Positions 32,001-44,000 of a stretch of DNA of 64,000 bases are shown one piece after another. The DNA is from Malacoraja senta (lineage: Eukaryota), in the NCBI GenBank assembly GCA_038087875.1, contig CM075987.1:18912001-18976000 (forward strand), in the 5' to 3' direction. The notes beneath the pieces were generated by a model. It had not been told where the DNA came from. It saw only the letters and a list, made by a program, of their open reading frames with translations, and ran no database searches. Position 1 is the stretch's first letter; every line of letters begins with the position of its first letter. Made by a program: the position numbers and the translations under genes.

Positions 32001-35000
32001 CTTCAATAATTGTCTCATTACTACCATACCGTAATAATCTTCTCCTGTTGCGAACTGACCCACGAGTGCTTTGAAGTACTGCAAGGGAACAACAAAAGAA
32101 AAATGAGTGATAATAACAACAGATTTCTTACTGAAAACACACAAGAGTCTGTGGATTAAAAATATATATATTTCACATTTACCCAATAAGTACATTCAAT
32201 TGTGAAAATTAGTAAGAAACTTGGCAAGGCACATTTGTTCCAAAAATTCACCTTCAGGGTTAATCTCACCCAAAATTGTGATTAGCAACAACATTTTCCT
32301 AGTAGCCATGTCCTTTCACTGGCAATAGTTAATTTCCAACCACATTAAGCAATTCTGCAGAATTGTGGTGGCGCTGTCAAGAAAATCAAAATAGAAATGT
32401 ATTTTAATCCCCATGAGAAAATGCAATGTGATATAGTCCTCAAATTATATGTTCCAAAGGTACATGCAAATTCTTGAAAGTTGAAGAAAATTGTTAGTAT
32501 AGCTATTCCAGATAGAATTTCTTTGAAATGCCCATATAATCAGCCCATATAGTGTCAGTCAGAGAGCAAATTAAAAAAAAAACAGCACCTATTGCTCACA
32601 ACTCAGGAGGTTTTCATTTCTGAACTCAAACCTACATATTTAAAAGGAATATTTATAATATGTAAGATACAGTGCCCTCCATAATGTTTGGGACAAGGAC
32701 CCGTCATTTATTTATTTGCCTCTGTACTCAACATTTTGAGATTTGTAATAGAAAAAAAAAATCACATGTGGTTAAGGTGCACATTGTCAGATTTTAATGA
32801 AGGCCATTTTTATACATTTTGGTTTCACCATGTAGAAATTACAGCAGTGTTTATACATAGTCCCCCCCATTCCGGAATGTATTGTAAATGAAAGTAGTCA
32901 GTGTGATGTATGTAATATAATTAGCATATGTTATGTCTTGTGCGAGAGGACGCATGCGCTGGGGGAGACTCAAGGTGGCGACCTAGAATAAAGAAGCTTG
33001 TCAGTTTACTCCTGTATCTGAGAGTTCTTTTGGGCCAGTTCCAAGCACCCAAATACACTACAATTGGCGACGAGGATGGGATGGAGTTCGTGAGCTCACC
33101 CGCAGGACTGTTTTGCAACAAGCAGGATTGTTTGGCCGTTTAAACAGTAGATACAGAGTTGTGTCGCAGTTGTTTGCGAGCTGGACATGAGAGGCCTGCA
33201 GATCCCTCTATGCCGGGGACTGTAATTTAAAACATCAGCTGTACAAGTCGGCGAGTTTTGTAAGGCTATCTTTATGTTGTGTCTACGTGGCAAGACGTTG
33301 TCCTTCGGATTGTTACACATTTAAGGCTGAGGTTTTTTTTGTCGAATTCCTCAAGCTGAATAATCTTTGTACAGCTAAGTTTTAGGTGAATTGTTACACC
33401 AGAACACGCAACAAGGATAACGAGGCAACGAGGATAAAAGAACAGAAAAGAACAAAGAAGGACTTTCAAGAAAAAAAAAACCAAGTTAAAAAGAAGAGGT
33501 TGTGTTTGGAAACAAAGTGGAACGGCACCAAGCCAAAGGAAAGAAAGGTCAGAACAGGAAGCAAGGAAAACAAGTGGGGCAGTAAGTAAGTGTCACCGAA
33601 GAACGCAGCCGAAAGCTGGAAGCCTAACCAGCAGGACAGCGACAGTGTCAACTTACCTGGAATGTTTTCCAGGGCCGTGCAGCCACGGGAAAGGGGCAGA
33701 AGAGGCCCAGCAGCCGCCACCGACTTCGGGTGAGTTCCAGGGCCGTGTACCGTGTAGGCCACGGACAGGTCCAGTGACCGCCACCGACTTTGGACGTTTT
33801 CCAGGGCTGTGCAGCCCACAGCCAGGCCCAGGAGCCGCCACCGACGTCGAGTGAGGGCCTAGTACCGGGTAGGCCACGGACAGGTCCAGTGAAGCCACAG
33901 ACGAAACGGAGTCAGCCCGGCCGGGAGAAGAGTCAGCCCGGTCGAGGGAGAAAACTGGCCGCGTGAGAAGCGGACAGGTAGAGTAAAAAAAAAAAACGGC
34001 TGCGAGAGAAGCGGACCGGTCGTGAGAGAAAGCCCGGTCGCAAGAGACGGCCAAGAGGAGAGAAAGCCCGGTCGGGAGTAGTCAGCCCGACCGTGAGCAG
34101 AAAAGCGGAGAGGCCCGCGAGAGAAGCGGAGAGCCGTGAAAGCCCGGTCGCAAGGGACGGCCGAGAGCGGAGAAAGCCCGGACGTGAGAGGAAGTCCGGC
34201 CCCGATAGAAGAGTGGGTCAGCGCGAGAGAAGCGGGACACAGCAGTCAAGCACTTCAGCCGGTCGGGAGCAGAGTCAGCCCGGTCGGGGGAGAAAGTGGA
34301 GAAAGCCCGGTCGCGGGAGACGGCCGAAAGCAGAGAAAGCCCGGTCGCGGGAGACAGCCGAGAGTGGAGAAAGCCTACCACGAGAGAGGCACAGTCCCGT
34401 CGCTTGGAGCAGCGGGGACCAGCAGCAGTAACTAGCAGCGACTCACCATCCGCAGGGTGTCCAAGGGAGACAGCGACGAGCCGAGCAGCGGGTCCAGTAT
34501 CAGCCAGGAGGGCTGTGGAGCCAGCGGGCAGGCAAGTCAGCGGAGCAGCAGGAGTCGACTTGGCAACAAGCCAGCGGCAGCAAAAGTGACGGTGAAGCCC
34601 AGGGGAGCCAGCAAAAGCAGCACAAGTGGAGGTCCGGTGAGGCCATCAGCAAAGGTACCAGTGGGAACAGCTCGAGAGGTCGAGGATGCACCAGAGTCCA
34701 CAGGCCACAAGCTGGAGCTGTGAAATCCTTCATAATAAAAGCCCTCTGTGAATGAAATGCATGGGCACAGTAAAAGCAGGACTGTTTAAATGTAATGCAT
34801 TGGTCACTGTTATTAATAGTAAATCTGTGTGCATAGAAGGAATATGGTTTAAAATGTTCTAAATGGCTATTAACATGAAATGTTGGTTAATAGTATAAAT
34901 CTATTATTATAAGAATTAGTAATAGTCAGTGGGCTGGATCACTTCTTAGTGTGTAAAATGATTAAGTCTAGTGCAGAAAACACAGTGAGAGAACAGAATA

Positions 35001-38000
35001 TAGTGCACCTGAATAGCAACATGTAGCATGGCTTTCCAAATTGTAGGAAACGTGCCCCAGTTAGATTCTGGGTGTAATTTTGAGAAATGGACCAAAGTCT
35101 TGGAGGCTTGTTTCATTTCCAATGATATCGCTGCAGAGGAGAAGAGAGCATGGTTCATATTAGGCTTAGGAAGAGAGGGTTATCAGACCTCACGTATGTT
35201 ACTGCAGCCAGCAAAGCCCACAGATAAAATGTACAAGGAGTGTAAGGAGGCATTAATGGCTCATTTCTCGCCAAAACCTCCAAGGGCATCCAGAGGCAAG
35301 GAGCCTGAACTAAAGAGGGCAGAGAGTCCCTCAAAGGACAAAAGTCAAGTGCAAAAGGACAATGGTCAAGTGCAAAAGGACCAAGGTCAAGTGCAAAAGG
35401 ACCAAGGTCAAGTGCAAAAGGACCAATGTCAAGTGCAAAAGGACCAAGGTCAAGTGCAAAAGGACAAAGGTCAAGTGCAAAGCGACAAAGGTCTAGTGCA
35501 AAGGGACAAAGGGCAAATGCAAAGTGACAGAAGTCAAAGGCAAAGGGAAATTGCCATCCAAAGGGCAACCCTAGCTATTCAAGCTGCATTCAGGGGTATG
35601 AAGGTACGGAGAGAGGTCCGGAACAAGCAGAAGGCAGCAACGGTAATACAAGCAGCATTTAGAAGGCACAGAGTATACCGTCAATACAAGGCAATGAAAT
35701 TAGCAGCTATAATAGTACAAACCCATTATAGGGCACACCTTCAAATGGAAAGTGATCGCAAGACTTACATGAAGGTACGCAGAAGCGTTGTACTGCTTCA
35801 GGCTGCCTACCGAGGAATGGTTGTTCGAAAGCAATTGCGGTGCATGCACAAATCTGCCAAGGTCATACAGACTTATTATCAGATGCATAAACAGCGTCAG
35901 TATTTCAAGAAACTACGCTGGTCTGCCATTGCGGTACAGCAACGATACAGAGCTTGCCAGATAAGAGATGTCCAAGTGAGACATTATAATAGTTTGAGAA
36001 AAGCAGTGGTTTGTATTCAGGCTTTCTACCGTGGGATCAAAGCCAGAGAATTGGTTGAGAAAATCAAGGCAGCACGCCATATTACGTCATTCATAAGGAT
36101 GTGTATTACAAGAAAGCACTTCTTGATGCAAAAGGCGGCTGTAGTCACTCTGCAAGCTGCATACCGTGGTTACTGATTAAGGGTATGGTACAGAGCTATG
36201 CGACAAGCAGTCATTTCGATCCAGAGATGGTACAAAGCATGCAAAATAGGGCATTCCCAGTTTGTGCAATATCAGTCAATGAGGTATGCAACTATTACCA
36301 TTCAGGCTGCCTACAAGAGTATGGTGGTTAGGCAGTGGGTTAAGCAAAAGAGGGCTACTGTAAAAGTGCATTCAGTACTCCATATGAGTTGGTATAGGAA
36401 AGACCTAAGGAGACAAATAGATGCACAACAGAAAAGGCTTAAATGATACAAAAGGCTTAAACGATATAGGAAAGACTTCCTCAAACTGATTTATACAGCA
36501 GTTGTAGTGCAGTCTCACTACCTTGCTTATGTAGTAAGAACAATATACAGAGCGCAAATCAAAGCCACTGTTGTATTGCAAAGACAATATAGATCCTACT
36601 TCTTGACGAATAACCAGAAAAGTGATTTAAGAAGACAAATAGATGAAAAACTGAAAAGGCTTAAACGATACCAAGAATGGTTAAATAAATGTGTGACGAT
36701 GAGCAAAAAGCTGTTAATAGAAAAGTCTAAAGAAGAGAGGCTTGTCGGTCGAGACAAAAGTATGCAGGACCGATTGCGATTAGGACACTTCACTATAGTC
36801 CAGCATGGAGCTTCCTTCACTGAGCAATGGACAAATGGTTATGCATTACAGAATGTCATTATTCAACAAGAGCAGATAAATATGCAGCGCCAGGAAATTG
36901 AGCGACAGAGGAAGCTGCTGAAAAACAAAAACCTGCAGTCATGTGCCAGATCCCACCTACAAATAAGGAACAGAAACAGAGGAAATGTTAACTGTAGCAG
37001 AATATCAAGAACACGAAGAAATCTGCAAATTAGATTAGGATATTTAAAAAGGGAAGAGGCAGAGATACAGGTAGACCTAGTGATTAGAAAGAGTGTGCAA
37101 TTTACACAGAAGGGAACGGAAAAGGATAACACATAAAGCAAGGTGTAATGTATTTGATTTAAGGAAGATGAGTGGAATGAACCATTATAAGTGCTAAGTT
37201 TAGATACGATTATTACAGTTATGAGGATGTAATGTAAGATGACTGTAATAATATAATTTTGCAACAGTGTTAAGCAATTATATTTAATGTAATAGAAATG
37301 GTGTTATTCGCCTCCAAGTTAAAGGGGGAGCAGTGTAATGTATATAATGTAAATGGTGTTACCTGCCTCCAAGTTAAACGGGGAGCAGTGTGATGTATGT
37401 AATATAATTAGCATATGTTATGTCTTGTGCGAGGGAACACATGCGCTGGGGGAGACTCAAGGTGGCGTCCTAGAATAAAGAAGCTTGTCAGTTTACTCCT
37501 GTATCTAAGAGTTCTTTTGGGTCAGTTCCAAGCACCCAAATACACTACAGTCAGGCTTAGTATTTTGTTGCATATCATTTGCATGCCATGCAATGACTGC
37601 TTGAAGTCTGCGATTCGTGGACATCACCAGTTGCTGGGTGCTTCTCTGGTGATGTTCTGCCAGGCCTGTATTACAGCCATCTTTAGCTTATGCTTGTTTT
37701 GAGGGCTAGTCCCCTTCAGTTTTCTATTCAGCATATAAATGGCATGCTCAATTGGATTCAGATCAGGTGATTGACTTGGTCACTCAAGAATTCACCATTT
37801 TTTAGCTTTGACAAGCTACTTTGTTGCTTTAGCAGTATGTTTAGGATCATTGTCTTGCTGTAGAATGAACTGCCGGCCAATGAGTTTTGAGACATTTGTT
37901 TGAACTTGAGCAAATAGGATGTGTCTATACACTTCAGAATTCATTATGCTACTACCATCAGCAGTTGTATAATCAATGAAGATGTGAGCCAGTACCTTCA

Positions 38001-41000
38001 GCAGCCATACATGCCCAGGCCATAACACCCCCACCACCGTGTTTCACAGATGAAGCGGTATGCTTTGGATCTTGGGCAGTTCCTTCTCTCCTCCATACTT
38101 TGCTCTTGCCATCACTCTGATATAAGTTAATCTTCGTCTCATCTGTCCACAAGACCTTTTTCCAGAACTGTGATTGCTCTTTTAAGTACTTCTTGGCAAA
38201 CTGTAACCTGGCTATCCTATTTATCCAGCTAACAAGTGGTTTGCATCTTGTAGTGTAGCCTCTGTATTTTTGTTCATGAAGTCTTCTGCGGACAGTGGTC
38301 ATTGACAAATCCACACCTGACTCCTGACGAGTGTTTCTGACCTGCCGGACAGGTGTTTGGGGATTTTTTTTAATTACAGAGAGCATTCTTCTGTCATCAG
38401 CTGTGGAGGTCTTCCTTGGCCTGCCAGTCCCTTTGCGATTAGTCAGCTCACCAGTGCTCTCTTTCTTCTTACTGATGTACCAAACAGTTGATTTTAGTCA
38501 GCGTAAGGTTTGGCTGATGTTTCTAACAGTTTTATTTTTGTTTCTCAGCCTCATAATGGCTTCTTTGACTTTCATTGGCACAACTTTGGTCCTCATGTTG
38601 ATAAACAGCCCCATAGCAGAAGCATCCATGTCGCGGCGCTGGAAACTGGAAGTGTCCTGAGCTAGGCCACCATCATCTACTGTATCTATTGTACCAACTC
38701 CTGCAAAGCTACAACCACCAGCCTACAAAGTTTTAACAAGTGATGGCTCCCACCGATTGTCGCCAGAAGCCTGCGTCCTTTTCAGGATGGATGATGACGG
38801 TGATGTCCATCAATGCCGAGGGCATTTCATCTGCAAAACAACAACTAATTGGAAAGCTCTGCAATGAGAATGCCTGTGATGTCTTATGTCTACAAGAGAC
38901 CCACAGATGCCAGCAACAGCATCGACCTAAGATCCCTGGAATGAAACTAGTTATTGAAAGGCCACATGAGAAATATGGCAGCACTATCTTCAGTAAAAGA
39001 GACCTAATCATCAACCAGACTTCAATGACAGAAAGGGACAACATAGAAATCCTTGCTGTGAACCTGGGGAAACTAATTGTGACCTCTGTTTACAAACCGC
39101 CAGGCTCTTCATTTGCCTTTGAAGAACACCAAACCATCAGTTACCAACACATGAATGTTACCATTGGGGATTTCAACAGCCACAGCACCTCATGGGGCTA
39201 TAAAGAAACCAACGAGGATGGTAATCTTGTAGAGAGTTGGGGAGAAGCACATCATCTTGACCTAATTCATGATGTTAAACTTCCTCCTTCCTTCAATAGC
39301 TGCCGATGGAAGAAAGGCTATAATCTCGACCTGACCTTTACAAGTGATCGAATAACATGTCAAGGCAAAAAACTAGTCTTCGAGTCAATACCACACTCAC
39401 AACACAGACCAATCATCATTGACATTACTGTTGTGGTACCTCAGAGAGTTCCTCTAGGACGGCGTTTCAACTTTCAAAAAGCTGATTGGGAGCAGTTTGC
39501 CAGCAATCTGGACGGAGCCCTATCTAATCTCGAGCCAGTCCCAGCAAACTATGATCAGTTCATCAAAACAGTGCAAGACATTTCTAGAAAGTATATTCCA
39601 CGCGGATGTAGTGAGTAGTATATACCTGGAATCTCAGCTGACAGTGCCTCATTTTACGAGAAGTACTCAAAACTGTACGAGGAAGATCCCTTCTCAGAGG
39701 AAACTATGAACACAGGGGCGATGCTCATGTTAACAATATCAGGGTAACAAAGAAAATCCTGGCAAGAACTTACTGAGAGTGTTGATATGACACACAACAG
39801 TAAGAGAGCTTAGTCAACCACCAAGAAGCTAAACAACGACCCCCAGAAGGCAACTGCACTCTAACATTACAGCAGATCAGGTTGCTCACTAGCTGCTTCT
39901 GAATGGCAAACCACCACACAAGAAGCACCACAAAATGAGTCTATGGCCTCAGGGTGATAGAGAGTCAACCTGGTACTTCAACAGCAAGGAACTCCAGAGA
40001 GCAATCAATTCCCTCAAGAACGGCAAGGCAGCTGGCCTTGATGACATTCGCACAGAACAGATCAAACATTTTGGGCAGATTACACAAGAGTTGGTCCTCT
40101 TGCTGCTCAACAATTGTGCAACCCTCTGCCAGCGACCTAAAATATGGCAGAAAGCTCTTGTGATCGCTATCCTTAAGCCAGGGAAAGACCCTAAAGAAGC
40201 AAAAAGCTACTGACCGATCTCCCAACTATGCCATCTCTTCAAGCTCTTTGAGTGCCTCATCTTGAACAGGTTGGGCCCAATCACAGAACAACACCTTATA
40301 CCAGAGATCGTGTACCAGCCAAGTGCTCAATCTAACTCAGCACATTGAGGACGGCTTTGAAAGGAATGAACCAACTGGCGTTGTCTTTGTTGATCTGACA
40401 GCTGACGACGACACTGTGAACCACAGGCTGCACCTCAATAGACTCCATGACATGACAGAGGACTTCCACTTGACCAATCTGATTCAACAGTTACTGGAAA
40501 ACAGTCGCTTCTATGTTGAGCTGAATGATAAACGCAGCAGATGGAGGAAACAAAAGAATGGCCTACCTCAGGGCAGTGTCCTTGCTCCGGTTCTGTTCAA
40601 TGTATACACTAATGATCAGCTAGTGTTCCCAGGGACAAGAAGCTTTGTTTACGCTGACGACCTTGGAATAGCAGCCCAGAGCACTCACATAGATGAGGTA
40701 GAAGCTACCCTCTCATCATCCTTAGACAACTTGACAAACTACTACTAGGACAACCAACTGAAGGCAAACCCTGCTAAGACCCAGGTTAGCCTGTTCCACC
40801 TTCGTAATCACGAAGCTGGGAGGAAGCTGTCCGTAACATGGATTGGTGTCCCTTTGAGACACTGTGAACTACCCTGTCTACCTTGGGGTCACTCTGGACC
40901 GAACCCTCTCCTTCAAGCAACACATCAAATGGGTGAAGGGCAAAGTGAGGACGAGGAACAGCCTCCTCCGCGAGCTGGCAAACTCGTCGTGGGGTAACAA

Positions 41001-44000
41001 TGCATCCACACTGTGGTCAACTGCTCTTGCGCTGTGCTACTCTGCTGCAGAGTATGCTTGTCCTGTTTGGGAGAGATCATCTCATGCAAAGAAAGTTGAT
41101 GCCACCCTTAATGACAGCTGCAGATGCATCACTGGCTGCCTAAAACCAACGGATGTGGATAGCTTGCATGTCTTGGCCGGTATTGTTCCACCAGGAATCC
41201 GCAGATCAGTTGCAGATAGAACTGAACATTGTAGGTAAGTTGGGGACACCCGCCATTCCTGTCACTCCCATCACCCACCCCCAAAACAGCTGAAGTCGAA
41301 GAAGAGCTTCCTTCACACAGTCCAGCCACTGTCAGTCTCCTCAAGCAACCAGACTAGCCTTGTGGGAAAAGAAACGCAGTGAAAACCACCACCACGTAAA
41401 GATGCCAATCCCAACCAAGGAACAGTTACCACCTGGTCACAGGTGTGACTGGAAGACCTGGAAGTCCCTCATAGGCTTCATACAGGGATGGGCTGAGGCA
41501 AGACCAATATGAGCAAATGGGGCTATGCGGATGTGGCAGACACAGAATGTGAATGTGGAACATCTATACAATCAATGCCACACCTACTAAGATGCCCACT
41601 TCTTGGTGAACAATGCTGCCTGGAAGATCTAGCGGTGGCAAACGAGAAGGCTGTCCACTGCAAGAGCCTGGCCGAACATTTGAAACATAAGATGATGGAC
41701 ACGAAAGAAGATATTGATAAACAGCAAAAAGTTTCCAAAGTTGATGGAAAGACTGGGGGAAAGACTAGGTGCTGAGAGGTCTCTTATACCTGCATTAAGG
41801 AGGCAATTAAACACACCTGAGCAATTACAAATGCCTGTGAAGCCATGTGTCCCAACATTATGGTGCCCTGAAATGGGGGGGGGGGGGGGCTATGTATAAA
41901 CACAGCTGTAATTTCTACATGGTGAAAACCAAAATGTATAAAAATGGCCTTTAATAAAATCTGACAATGTGCACTTTAACCACATGTGATTTTTTTTCCA
42001 TTACAAATCTCAAATTGTGAAGTACAGAGGCAAATAAAGAAATGATGGGTCTTTGTCCCAAACATTATGGAGGGCACTGTATGTGCCTTTTTTACTTTGG
42101 TTAAATAAATAATCAAGCATGTACAGATGGGTTAAGTTCTAATTCTCCCTGAGGGATGAGGTTGTGCAATAAACGTTTTTGACCATGTTTTCATCTCAAT
42201 TTCAACACTTGGGACCTACTGCCATATTAATTCAGATAATTTGAAAAGTACCCTGCTGAAAGAAAAATCAAGGCAAAGAACTTGTTCTACAACTTAGCAG
42301 TTTGATCATGAGAGGAAGGATGTAAATTGGGTAAGAGCAAAACCTTCTCCTTATTTATTTACTAAGCACAAGCCAAGCTGGACAATGGGACAAAAAAAAG
42401 TTATTGTTATCCAAGTAATGTAAATGGAAATCAAATTAGAAAGTGCATATATTTATTGAGCATTGAATTTTTAAATTTCAAAATAGCAATAAATTAATTT
42501 CTGTACAATTCATCATTACAAGGTTTATTACAATAGAAAAGGTTTCTGGACCCTTTTTCTGCCTGGTGGCACGACAGTCACAAAGTATTCTGGACAAGTA
42601 TCTCCCCCAATTTTGTTCACATGTAAATATATATAACAGATTATTTTACTGATATCAATCAGGAAACATTGACTTTTACCCTTTGATTCAGGAGTGCTGA
42701 GAAGATTTGCATAATTTTAGTTCAGGGGAACTTCTTTCTTCATGGTATACTCTGCACCTAACTTCCCTCTGATAAGTTCATGCTGCAGGGAATTTATCCA
42801 GTGAGACACTAACTAAGCTGCATGCTGGTCAACCGTGTATCTCTGGTATAGCTCTGGCAAGAAGCAAGTACATATTAAACCAAAAGATACAGCATGACTG
42901 GGAAAAGGTGGGCCAGTCTCTCATTGCTTTAACAGAGACAATAAATATACAGGGCTCACCAGCCCAAATAGGATGATAATAAATTAGATTGGAAAAATGT
43001 ATTTATTTAGTCAAACTTCAAAGTCATAGGTGGCTTACAGGACAATAATCTACAATAATAAATAAACTAAACTAAAACGAACCTTTAGCAGGTCCAGTTA
43101 CTATGCACGTTTCATAATGCAAAGAAAAGGTACTGTTAAGTCGGTTCTCAATTATAAAGCTTGTATTTCTCTCCACCCACAAAATTAGCTAAACATTCTT
43201 ACATTTCAGCAGAAAAGACTGTACATCAAGGAACTGAAAAAACTAATAAATAAAAATCTCACCTTAATTTCAAATATGCATGTTTGCAAAGAATAATTCA
43301 CTACACAAAGACACACTACACACATTCACTATACAAAGTATTACTTCGTCAACAGGTATGCCCTTACCCGAAAGGTTGGATAGAAGTGAATACCATAGTC
43401 TGCACATGCAGCAAAATTCTTCTCCTCGGCACAGTCCATCGCACCGACCCTGATTGCCAATTCCCAATCTGCACAGAAAAGTTTACTTCATTATTTTCCG
43501 ATACAAATTTAGCACTTGACAGTGGCCAGATAAAGCCGTTGAGAAAGGTGAATGAGATACTTAAATTTATCAGATGGGGAATGGAATAAAATTGTAAACA
43601 TTATTAGTCAGGTCAAAATTGAACCTCCAGTCACCACCAAACAAGATAGCTCTGGAGAGGATGCAGAGATAATGCGCATGTTGCCAGGGCTGAAGAATTA
43701 TAATGATGAAGAGAAACAAAATTTGTTAGGGATTGTGCTCTTTTGGATAGAGGATATTGAGGAGATATTTGAAATGAAGTGTGCAAAACTATTGTCCCTC
43801 TGTTGCAGTTACTCTTTCACAAGATAATTAGCAAATTAGTAGGCAGAGTCTGTTGCTTTTATTTCCTTTTTTTAAAGTTTGTAAGAAACAAAGTCTCCAA
43901 TATTACAAAAGTAGTAAGGTGATTGCATTCTACAATTTCCTTTGATTTGAGCTGTCCATTTAGAACATGAAAATGAAGGGAACCATAAAGTATTCACATG

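Follow-up and report, generated by a model that had tools for sequence, protein, structure and literature searches.

How does a retroelement with no polymerase genes of its own come to carry coding sequence that resembles two host cell-division genes, and is that cargo a gene or a passenger? The question is raised by a stretch of 64,000 nucleotides from the skate Malacoraja senta (contig CM075987.1, positions 18,912,001 to 18,976,000; hereafter the window). In this stretch, an initial annotation made from the letters alone had described a pol-less long terminal repeat (LTR) retroelement that carries parts of ASPM and TLK2 in a Gag fusion. Our analysis makes it very likely that this element belongs to a non-autonomous LTR family of Ty3/gypsy descent, in which pieces of spliced host mRNAs have replaced most of gag and all of pol, and which is mobilised in trans.

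The outer shell has all the structural marks of an LTR retrotransposon, namely paired LTRs, a target-site duplication, a tRNA-matched primer-binding site (PBS) and a polypurine tract (PPT); their positions, like those of all other features, are collected in Table 1. The two LTRs align without gaps and are identical at 155 of 161 positions. By reading, the 5' LTR also contains a TATA-like TATAAT (32916-32921) and an AATAAA (32987-32992). The PBS is perfectly complementary to the 3' end of a host tRNA-Ser(GCT): 15 bases encoded by its gene (L062 30-111), followed by CCA. When the genome (1.94 Gb, the scope of all genome searches reported here) was searched for the tRNA 3'-end pattern, with the element's own copies excluded, 26 sites were found, compared with 0-1 for the reversed control; two of these sites were passed to ARAGORN, which identified one as a tRNA-Ser(GCT) gene and found no gene at the other. 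Furthermore, the element is inserted inside a Tc1-like DNA transposon, and a paralogous copy of that transposon crosses the insertion site uninterrupted, with a single 5-mer (L052 8331-8470), which constitutes a classical empty site. The intact LTR shell of the first description is thereby borne out by the LTR alignment, the empty site and the tRNA match.

Inside this shell, no Pfam match to reverse transcriptase (RT), RNase H or integrase was found in the long frame or in 12 other open reading frames of the element (95-187 amino acids), in line with its being called pol-less. Most closely related to it are autonomous gypsy elements of 5.3 kb, whose LTRs measure 166 bp and whose domains are ordered RVT_1, RT_RNaseH, rve (L052). 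They share with the element its architecture, its PPT and a PBS that resembles a decayed form of the same site. The Gag N-terminus, leader, linker, 3' tail, PPT and LTR of the element are all similar to their counterparts in these relatives, the common parts of the leaders of L051 and L052 matching at 72-90% by blastn. This homology breaks off behind the Gag linker and is taken up again with the 3' tail, where the pol stop codon of the relatives stands; hence the host sequence replaces the coding region of the element and does not interrupt it. Since the protease, RT, RNase H and integrase domains of a Ty3/gypsy pol are absent here and present in that order in the nearest autonomous relatives, we conclude that the element is a derivative of the Ty3/gypsy (Metaviridae) lineage rather than a complete member.

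The long frame consists of a Gag N-terminus, a linker, a tandem repeat, an array of IQ motifs with a small insert and a TLK2 segment. The order of parts agrees with the first description, but the single open frame of some 700 codons that it proposed does not, as the window copy has in-frame stops at 36174-36176 and 36444-36446. In amino acids, the Gag N-terminus is 64-71% identical to that of gypsy relatives elsewhere in the genome. The fragment itself gives no direct Pfam gag match; a HMMER search with its 84 residues returned 312 relatives (E <=0.001). Twenty of the 22 longer relatives that were scanned carry gag, zinc-knuckle, protease, RT, RNase H or integrase domains, with RT before integrase wherever both are present, and the other two are a DUF-only protein and a bacterial cadherin. 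The gypsy-type nature of this segment, as first proposed, is thus well founded. The linker was recognised by blastn, which matches element positions 2376-2436 to L051 3604-3664 and L052 3616-3676; compared with these two loci, about 350 nt of capsid coding between the Gag N-terminus and the linker are deleted. Beyond the linker, the QVQKDQG repeat seen earlier is recovered as a 21-bp tandem repeat.

The evidence for host origin is strongest for the TLK2 segment. It matches the solved TLK2 structure PDB 5o0y with an E value of 1e-45, and its best protein matches are the TLK2 of three skates, at 80% amino acid identity. Among 120 listed matches, TLK2 is the sole specific gene name, TLK1 being absent, and the rest are generic kinases, 'hypothetical' or nameless; the segment, first described as the coiled-coil region of TLK1/2, can therefore be assigned to TLK2. 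It covers the coiled-coil region (amino acids 192 to ~376) and has no protein kinase domain. Past about residue 298, it leaves the TLK2 frame and then re-enters it. The host TLK2 gene was recovered exon by exon on contig C10, at about 14350890-14405175, with up to 97-98% identity between its best exons and skate TLK2 protein. The host exon that ends in ...DDLLR carries a GT donor, and a 3.3-kb intron lies between the two exons that follow (L061 996-1106 and 4406-4542). The element is 90.4% and 90.6% identical in nucleotides to these two exons and joins them exactly, at 36725|36726. Because host exons 3.3 kb apart are joined without error in the element, the TLK2 piece derives from spliced mRNA of the host TLK2 gene; the captured region spans ~15 kb in that gene compared with ~0.5 kb in the element. 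The 5' end of the piece lies <=8 nt from the first base of a host exon, for which we estimate a chance of ~4-9%, so that the agreement with an exon edge is noted here as one that could be fortuitous. The mini-insert within the IQ array is a 72-nt unit made up of ~50 nt from the start of the TLK2 piece and an 18-nt duplication, with a 12-nt direct repeat on either side (36393-36404 and 36465-36476). Elsewhere in the genome, a small unplaced contig holds another tousled-like kinase locus (C6180:1069-17867), which is 57-88% identical to the TLK2 kinase-domain exons and is presumably TLK1.

The IQ array gives a Pfam IQ match with an E value of 2e-22, with seven stretches in the first segment of the frame alone. 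A search among longer proteins returned 90 matches at E <=1e-5; those with a name are nearly all ASPM, with E values as low as 1e-179, and myosin-Va (3e-11) is the best named match of another kind. The best register is with residues 653-952 of the ASPM-type protein P0004 (40% identity, compared with 27-33% for other registers), and nearly all of the 34 element copies scored with P0004 in the genome take the same register, one starting at residue 579. Of an ASPM gene, only the IQ motifs are present, and the ASH, CH and C-terminal regions are missing, so the array is a fragment and not an ASPM gene. This bears on the view that the sequence is a host gene, a short ASPM paralogue whose LTR-like flanks are coincidental. 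NCBI does name P0001, a protein of 290 amino acids that is 91-92% identical to the first 91 residues, an ASPM homolog. Nevertheless, a host gene would not be expected to begin with Gag, to lie between paired LTRs with a PBS, a PPT and a target duplication, to recur at hundreds of dispersed loci, or to be broken in all sampled copies, and we consider this view hardly credible.

The spread of the sequence through the genome was measured with its own DNA. The long frame gave 366 first-look matches, 40 of which were scored and found to be 85-100% identical; the full 2,109 bases of the frame are covered at 19 of these loci, not counting the window. The LTR gave 508 first-look matches, and the 40 scored are all >=95% identical. 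Hence we are dealing not with a single copy but with a family, probably of hundreds of members. Both LTRs are present in 13 of 20 copies examined. Five insertions (the window, L032, L034, L036 and L043) are flanked by perfect 5-bp duplications that differ in sequence. As for the other copies with two LTRs, two are segmental duplicates (L037 of L036 and L048 of L033), L033 has no target duplication, two have one truncated LTR and four have a longer LTR variant. Each of the five having its own 5-bp duplication, the insertions are independent, and the divergence between the LTRs of a copy (0.012-0.095 across copies) indicates that they were spread over time.

The junction between IQ array and TLK2 segment, together with the mini-insert, has the same structure in all 21 aligned copies, and 64 of 65 TLK2 rows in the genome search begin at TLK2 residues 160-217, mostly 191-194. 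Thus, the chimera arose once and moved as a unit, as had been proposed from the paired LTRs and target duplication of the window copy, and as the many full-length copies with target duplications of their own confirm. The same finding speaks to the suspicion that the structure is an assembly artefact, or else a rearrangement at the DNA level in which processed pseudogenes became nested in an LTR element. Repeat-rich regions are indeed prone to misjoins, and LINE-made processed pseudogenes are common in vertebrates. Misassembly, which the initial annotation had named as a possible source of error, does not explain junctions that are the same in 21 of 21 copies on many contigs. As for a rearrangement, the host pieces are internal fragments of coding sequence without 3' UTR, poly(A) or target duplications of their own, both are sense-oriented, and they replace rather than interrupt the coding of the element. 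Either event therefore appears very improbable.

What becomes of the frame after insertion can be read from the copies. All 19 full-coverage copies start with ATG and all are interrupted, with a first stop at codon 6-478 and a longest open stretch of 169-486 amino acids; copies with an intact frame, for which the initial annotation had left room, do not occur among them. Read in the frame of the window copy, each of 17 independent copies shows 2-6 stop columns, together with 1-6 indels that shift the frame; copies gain ~2.6 internal stops and 2.8 frameshifts per ~2.4% divergence. Nucleotide diversity among 18 copies is 0.0495, 0.0480 and 0.0469 at the first, second and third codon positions, and pooled dN/dS among copies is 0.78, which we take as neutral given the transition bias. 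The comparison among copies that had been proposed as a check thus gives a neutral-like outcome. Measured against the host TLK2 exons, the copies show a dN of 0.092 and a dS of 0.183 (19 copies; 82 codons). Their ratio, 0.49, is what one neutral and one constrained branch would give, and therefore fits a neutral element branch. The cargo evolves neutrally. Given this, and since neither the TLK2 kinase domain nor the ASH, CH and C-terminal regions of ASPM are part of it, we regard it as most probably a passenger.

We infer that the parts were joined by template switching and that the product was mobilised in trans. Element RNA and spliced cellular mRNAs would have been co-packaged in a virus-like particle, where the reverse transcriptase would have switched several times between element RNA and host mRNAs, as the structure calls for four joints or more; the mini-insert and the repeats on either side of it would be a typical scar of such a switch. 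In the process, the founder would have lost the C-terminal part of the capsid, the zinc knuckles, protease, RT, RNase H and integrase, and would have received in their place a partial ASPM-type IQ array and the TLK2 coiled coil, both in sense orientation. The chimera kept what is needed in cis, namely both LTRs, the tRNA-Ser(GCT) PBS, the leader, the PPT and the LTR ends. Once integrated, the pol-less chimera would have been copied repeatedly in trans by the proteins of a related autonomous gypsy element, with a 5-bp duplication each time.

Several observations weigh against this explanation. One is that the IQ array is only 38-46% identical to ASPM of other vertebrates. Another is that a host ASPM gene was not found with the four genome queries used: a 137-amino-acid C-terminal stretch of P0004, the Pfam ASH domain, the whole of P0004 (for which the rows scored were element copies only) and a 260-amino-acid stretch of the CH region of P0022. 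Hence, of the two parent genes expected in the host, TLK2 was found, at ~90% nucleotide identity, but ASPM was not; the array is of ASPM type, as first described, but its parentage is for this reason drawn from cross-species similarity only, from which ASPM of this host would be the donor. One short contig has a loose end, upstream of 35528, whose sequence resembles additional IQ coding, possibly that of parental ASPM. The search for a helper met with similarly divided success: a related autonomous gypsy lineage was found, but a limited search revealed no autonomous element with a close LTR or leader among L051-L059, L065 and L066. Over its full length, the LTR of L052 is only 71% identical, and partial matches of these relatives in the LTR or at the 3' end lie at 66-85%; a genome search based on integrase returned only relatives at 65-71% Gag identity or 66-85% LTR/3'-end identity. 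Similarity at the switch points comprises 3-nt overlaps and the 12-nt repeats at the mini-insert, with a possible overlap of at least 8 nt at the 3' junction; with donor sequence at hand for only one of the four junctions, it does not decide the matter.

The remaining point concerns the frame in the past. Of the two internal stops in the window copy, one occurs in only 3 and the other in only 5 of 18 sequences, and no internal stop column is common to more than 5 of the 18. A 2-nt indel near 37078 separates 16 of the 17 other copies from the window, and a frame-ending stop inside the TLK2 part is shared by 12 of 19 copies. Because internal stops are scarcely shared and there is one common end stop, an open frame of ~686 codons was probably present in the ancestor from which the sampled copies descend. 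At about one stop per 1% divergence, and with ~9% divergence on the element branch since capture, such a frame is more open than neutrality predicts, as far as these small numbers indicate, and does not fit a pure passenger.

This leads to the alternative that the Gag-IQ-TLK2 frame is or was a working gene, with translation through the cargo required for propagation. The putative routes are that a short 3' UTR shields the RNA from nonsense-mediated decay, that the protein binds helper Gag, or that the coiled coil interferes with host TLK2. Besides the probable open frame of the ancestor, it draws on the fact that the reading frame runs on across each of the three junctions of host sequence or insert, and on the expectation that an unconstrained frame (dN ~0.09 since capture) would have acquired several stops before amplification. 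On the other hand, constraint on the amino acids is absent, as equal diversity at the codon positions and the ratio of 0.49 indicate; every full-coverage copy is broken; part of the TLK2 piece lies outside the TLK2 frame; and the divergence estimate is based on 82 codons. On balance, we regard a working gene as rather unlikely. The more specific proposition, that the active lineage long kept its ~686-codon frame free of stops without amino acid constraint since translation through the captured sequence was itself required, seems distinctly unlikely. If it were true, being translated could spare an RNA that relies on a helper from nonsense-mediated decay; a bolder possibility is that the product attaches to helper Gag, or titrates TLK2 and thereby relaxes the chromatin silencing of transposons. 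Capture of spliced mRNA pieces by a gypsy derivative, followed by spread in trans, accordingly stays our preferred explanation.

Table 1. Positions in the window of the retroelement and its parts
Feature	Position	Strand	Remarks
Target-site duplication, left	32897-32901	+	GTCAG; single 5-mer there in empty-site paralog
LTR retroelement, whole	32902-37549	+	4,648 bp; host Malacoraja senta, contig CM075987.1
5' LTR	32902-33062	+	161 bp, TG..CA ends
PBS	33065-33082	+	18 nt; complementary to 3' end of tRNA-Ser(GCT)
Leader / 5' UTR	33083-35027	+	long; tandem repeats 34016-34375; no Pfam domain in its open reading frames
Long frame	35028-37136	+	2,109 bases; Gag N-terminus, linker, repeat, IQ array with mini-insert, TLK2
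Gag N-terminus	35028-35279	+	84 codons; start of capsid domain
Gag linker remnant	35277-35337	+	60 nt; precedes zinc knuckle in related elements
Tandem repeat (QVQKDxG)	35333-35548	+	21 bp x 10.3
ASPM-type IQ array	35541-36620	+	Pfam IQ; both in-frame stops of window copy inside
Short TLK2-derived piece (mini-insert)	36405-36464	+	second TLK2 piece, inside IQ array; tblastn to TLK2 amino acids 195-211
TLK2 coiled-coil segment	36621-37140	+	TLK2 amino acids 192 to ~376; intronless; exon-exon joint 36725|36726
3' tail of parent gypsy lineage	37121-37388	+	local alignment to L052 from 7146, L054 from 7087
Tandem duplication, 55 bp	37290-37407	+	holds PPT and first LTR bases
PPT	37376-37388	+	purine-rich by reading; similar tract at same place in L052
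3' LTR	37389-37549	+	161 bp, TG..CA ends
Target-site duplication, right	37550-37554	+	GTCAG

Several further observations concern the surroundings of the element and individual family members. Just downstream of the window copy lies a Tc1/mariner-like transposase frame (37816-38497, minus strand), and a further partial copy of the same transposon is found ~4 kb on, at 41882-42082. In four of the 13 two-LTR copies (L035, L038, L040 and L050), the 5' LTR is preceded by the PPT-bearing 55-bp unit, which suggests that the longer LTR variant was made by priming at the upstream PPT copy. L050 (C4:54454000-54463900) was considered as an autonomous helper and rejected: it is a copy of the chimera, lengthened to about 9.4-9.6 kb by nested insertions, namely a same-orientation RT-bearing element (RVT_1; DIRS-like by eye) and a LINE fragment. 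L043 (C1:128859604-128868100) is a 7.8-kb copy in which element positions 470-2333, from leader to frame start, stand three times in tandem. L064 (C2735:67350-68950) is a copy of an older-looking subfamily, with similar rows on C18, C2015, C2349 and C4508. Its TLK2 piece runs longer in the TLK2 frame and is 79-84% identical to TLK2; the copy is cut by a LINE, its open stretch of 303 amino acids recurs at the same length at several loci, and it is probably a segmentally duplicated block. Finally, L036 and L037 (C2, 54 kb apart) and L033 and L048 (C3238, inverted) are pairs with common flanks; once inserted, some members of the family were thus multiplied further by segmental duplication.

Taken together, our results indicate that in a cartilaginous fish, LTR-mediated capture of host mRNA can yield a successful non-autonomous family and not just isolated retrocopies, with exon-shuffled host coding sequence carried to hundreds of sites. 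There is a practical side to this. The annotation of the little skate includes the product of a family copy, the 290-amino-acid P0001, under the name 'abnormal spindle-like microcephaly-associated protein homolog isoform X1'. With copies annotated in skate as an 'ASPM homolog', gene counts and claims of ASPM or TLK2 family expansion in these genomes need filtering. Hundreds of sense fragments of TLK2 and ASPM might also give rise to small RNAs or chimeric transcripts directed against two genes essential for cell division, and the family lends itself, as a natural experiment, to asking whether an open frame is needed by a retroelement that depends on a helper.

Elements of comparable build are known from several quarters. 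Replication-defective transducing retroviruses, such as those encoding Gag-Myc or Gag-Abl, have lost pol, carry a truncated Gag fused in frame to spliced host coding sequence, and need a helper; they are formed by the same kind of mechanism as that inferred here. The skate element differs from them in being non-infectious and without env, in its gypsy descent and in its spread as a germ-line transposon; furthermore, its captured pieces have no catalytic domains, so that growth-promoting activity is not expected. LARD and TRIM elements, and mouse ETn with its partner MusD, retain nothing but their LTRs, PBS and PPT, and related autonomous elements mobilise them to high copy number; in contrast to the skate element, they carry no host-gene cargo fused to Gag. 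A counterpart to the cargo is found in maize Bs1, a plant element of low copy number. Bs1 is described as a pol-less LTR element with segments of several unlinked host genes, acquired by the mechanism inferred here, in one hybrid open reading frame, and its chimeric gene as transcribed and translated (PMC13317346). Of the skate element, all sampled copies are broken.

No paper describing an ASPM-TLK2 element, or the capture of a tousled-like kinase by a retrotransposon, was found in a search outside subscription journals and repeat databases. The example therefore appears undescribed, as the initial annotation had supposed, but the kind of event is already on record in animals and plants, and the novelty is correspondingly smaller (PMC5131818, PMC13317346). 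In the former, LTR-mediated retroposition in metazoans replaces the internal coding of LTR retrotransposons with partial host mRNAs that have LTRs on both sides; the retrocopies arise by template switching in virus-like particles, with microsimilarity at the junctions as a hallmark, and can be retroposed again, with vertebrate cases in zebrafish, chicken, mouse and human (Tan et al. 2016, PMC5131818). The retrocopies described there are single- or few-copy, with two Drosophila cases at more than one insertion site, whereas the skate chimera is a family with hundreds of matches and, unlike them, has its cargo joined in frame to the Gag N-terminus that it has retained. Capture followed by germ-line multiplication is also described for crocodilian endogenous retroviruses that acquired KIT-ligand and nectin3 mRNAs and are present in several copies (PMC4299795). 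There, the cargo consists of whole open reading frames under purifying selection, carried in retroviruses, whereas the skate element, a gypsy derivative, carries neutral fragments. Set beside these systems, the skate family appears to follow a mechanism that is already known, and to be unusual in its copy number, in its double cargo fused to Gag and in the possible maintenance of its frame.

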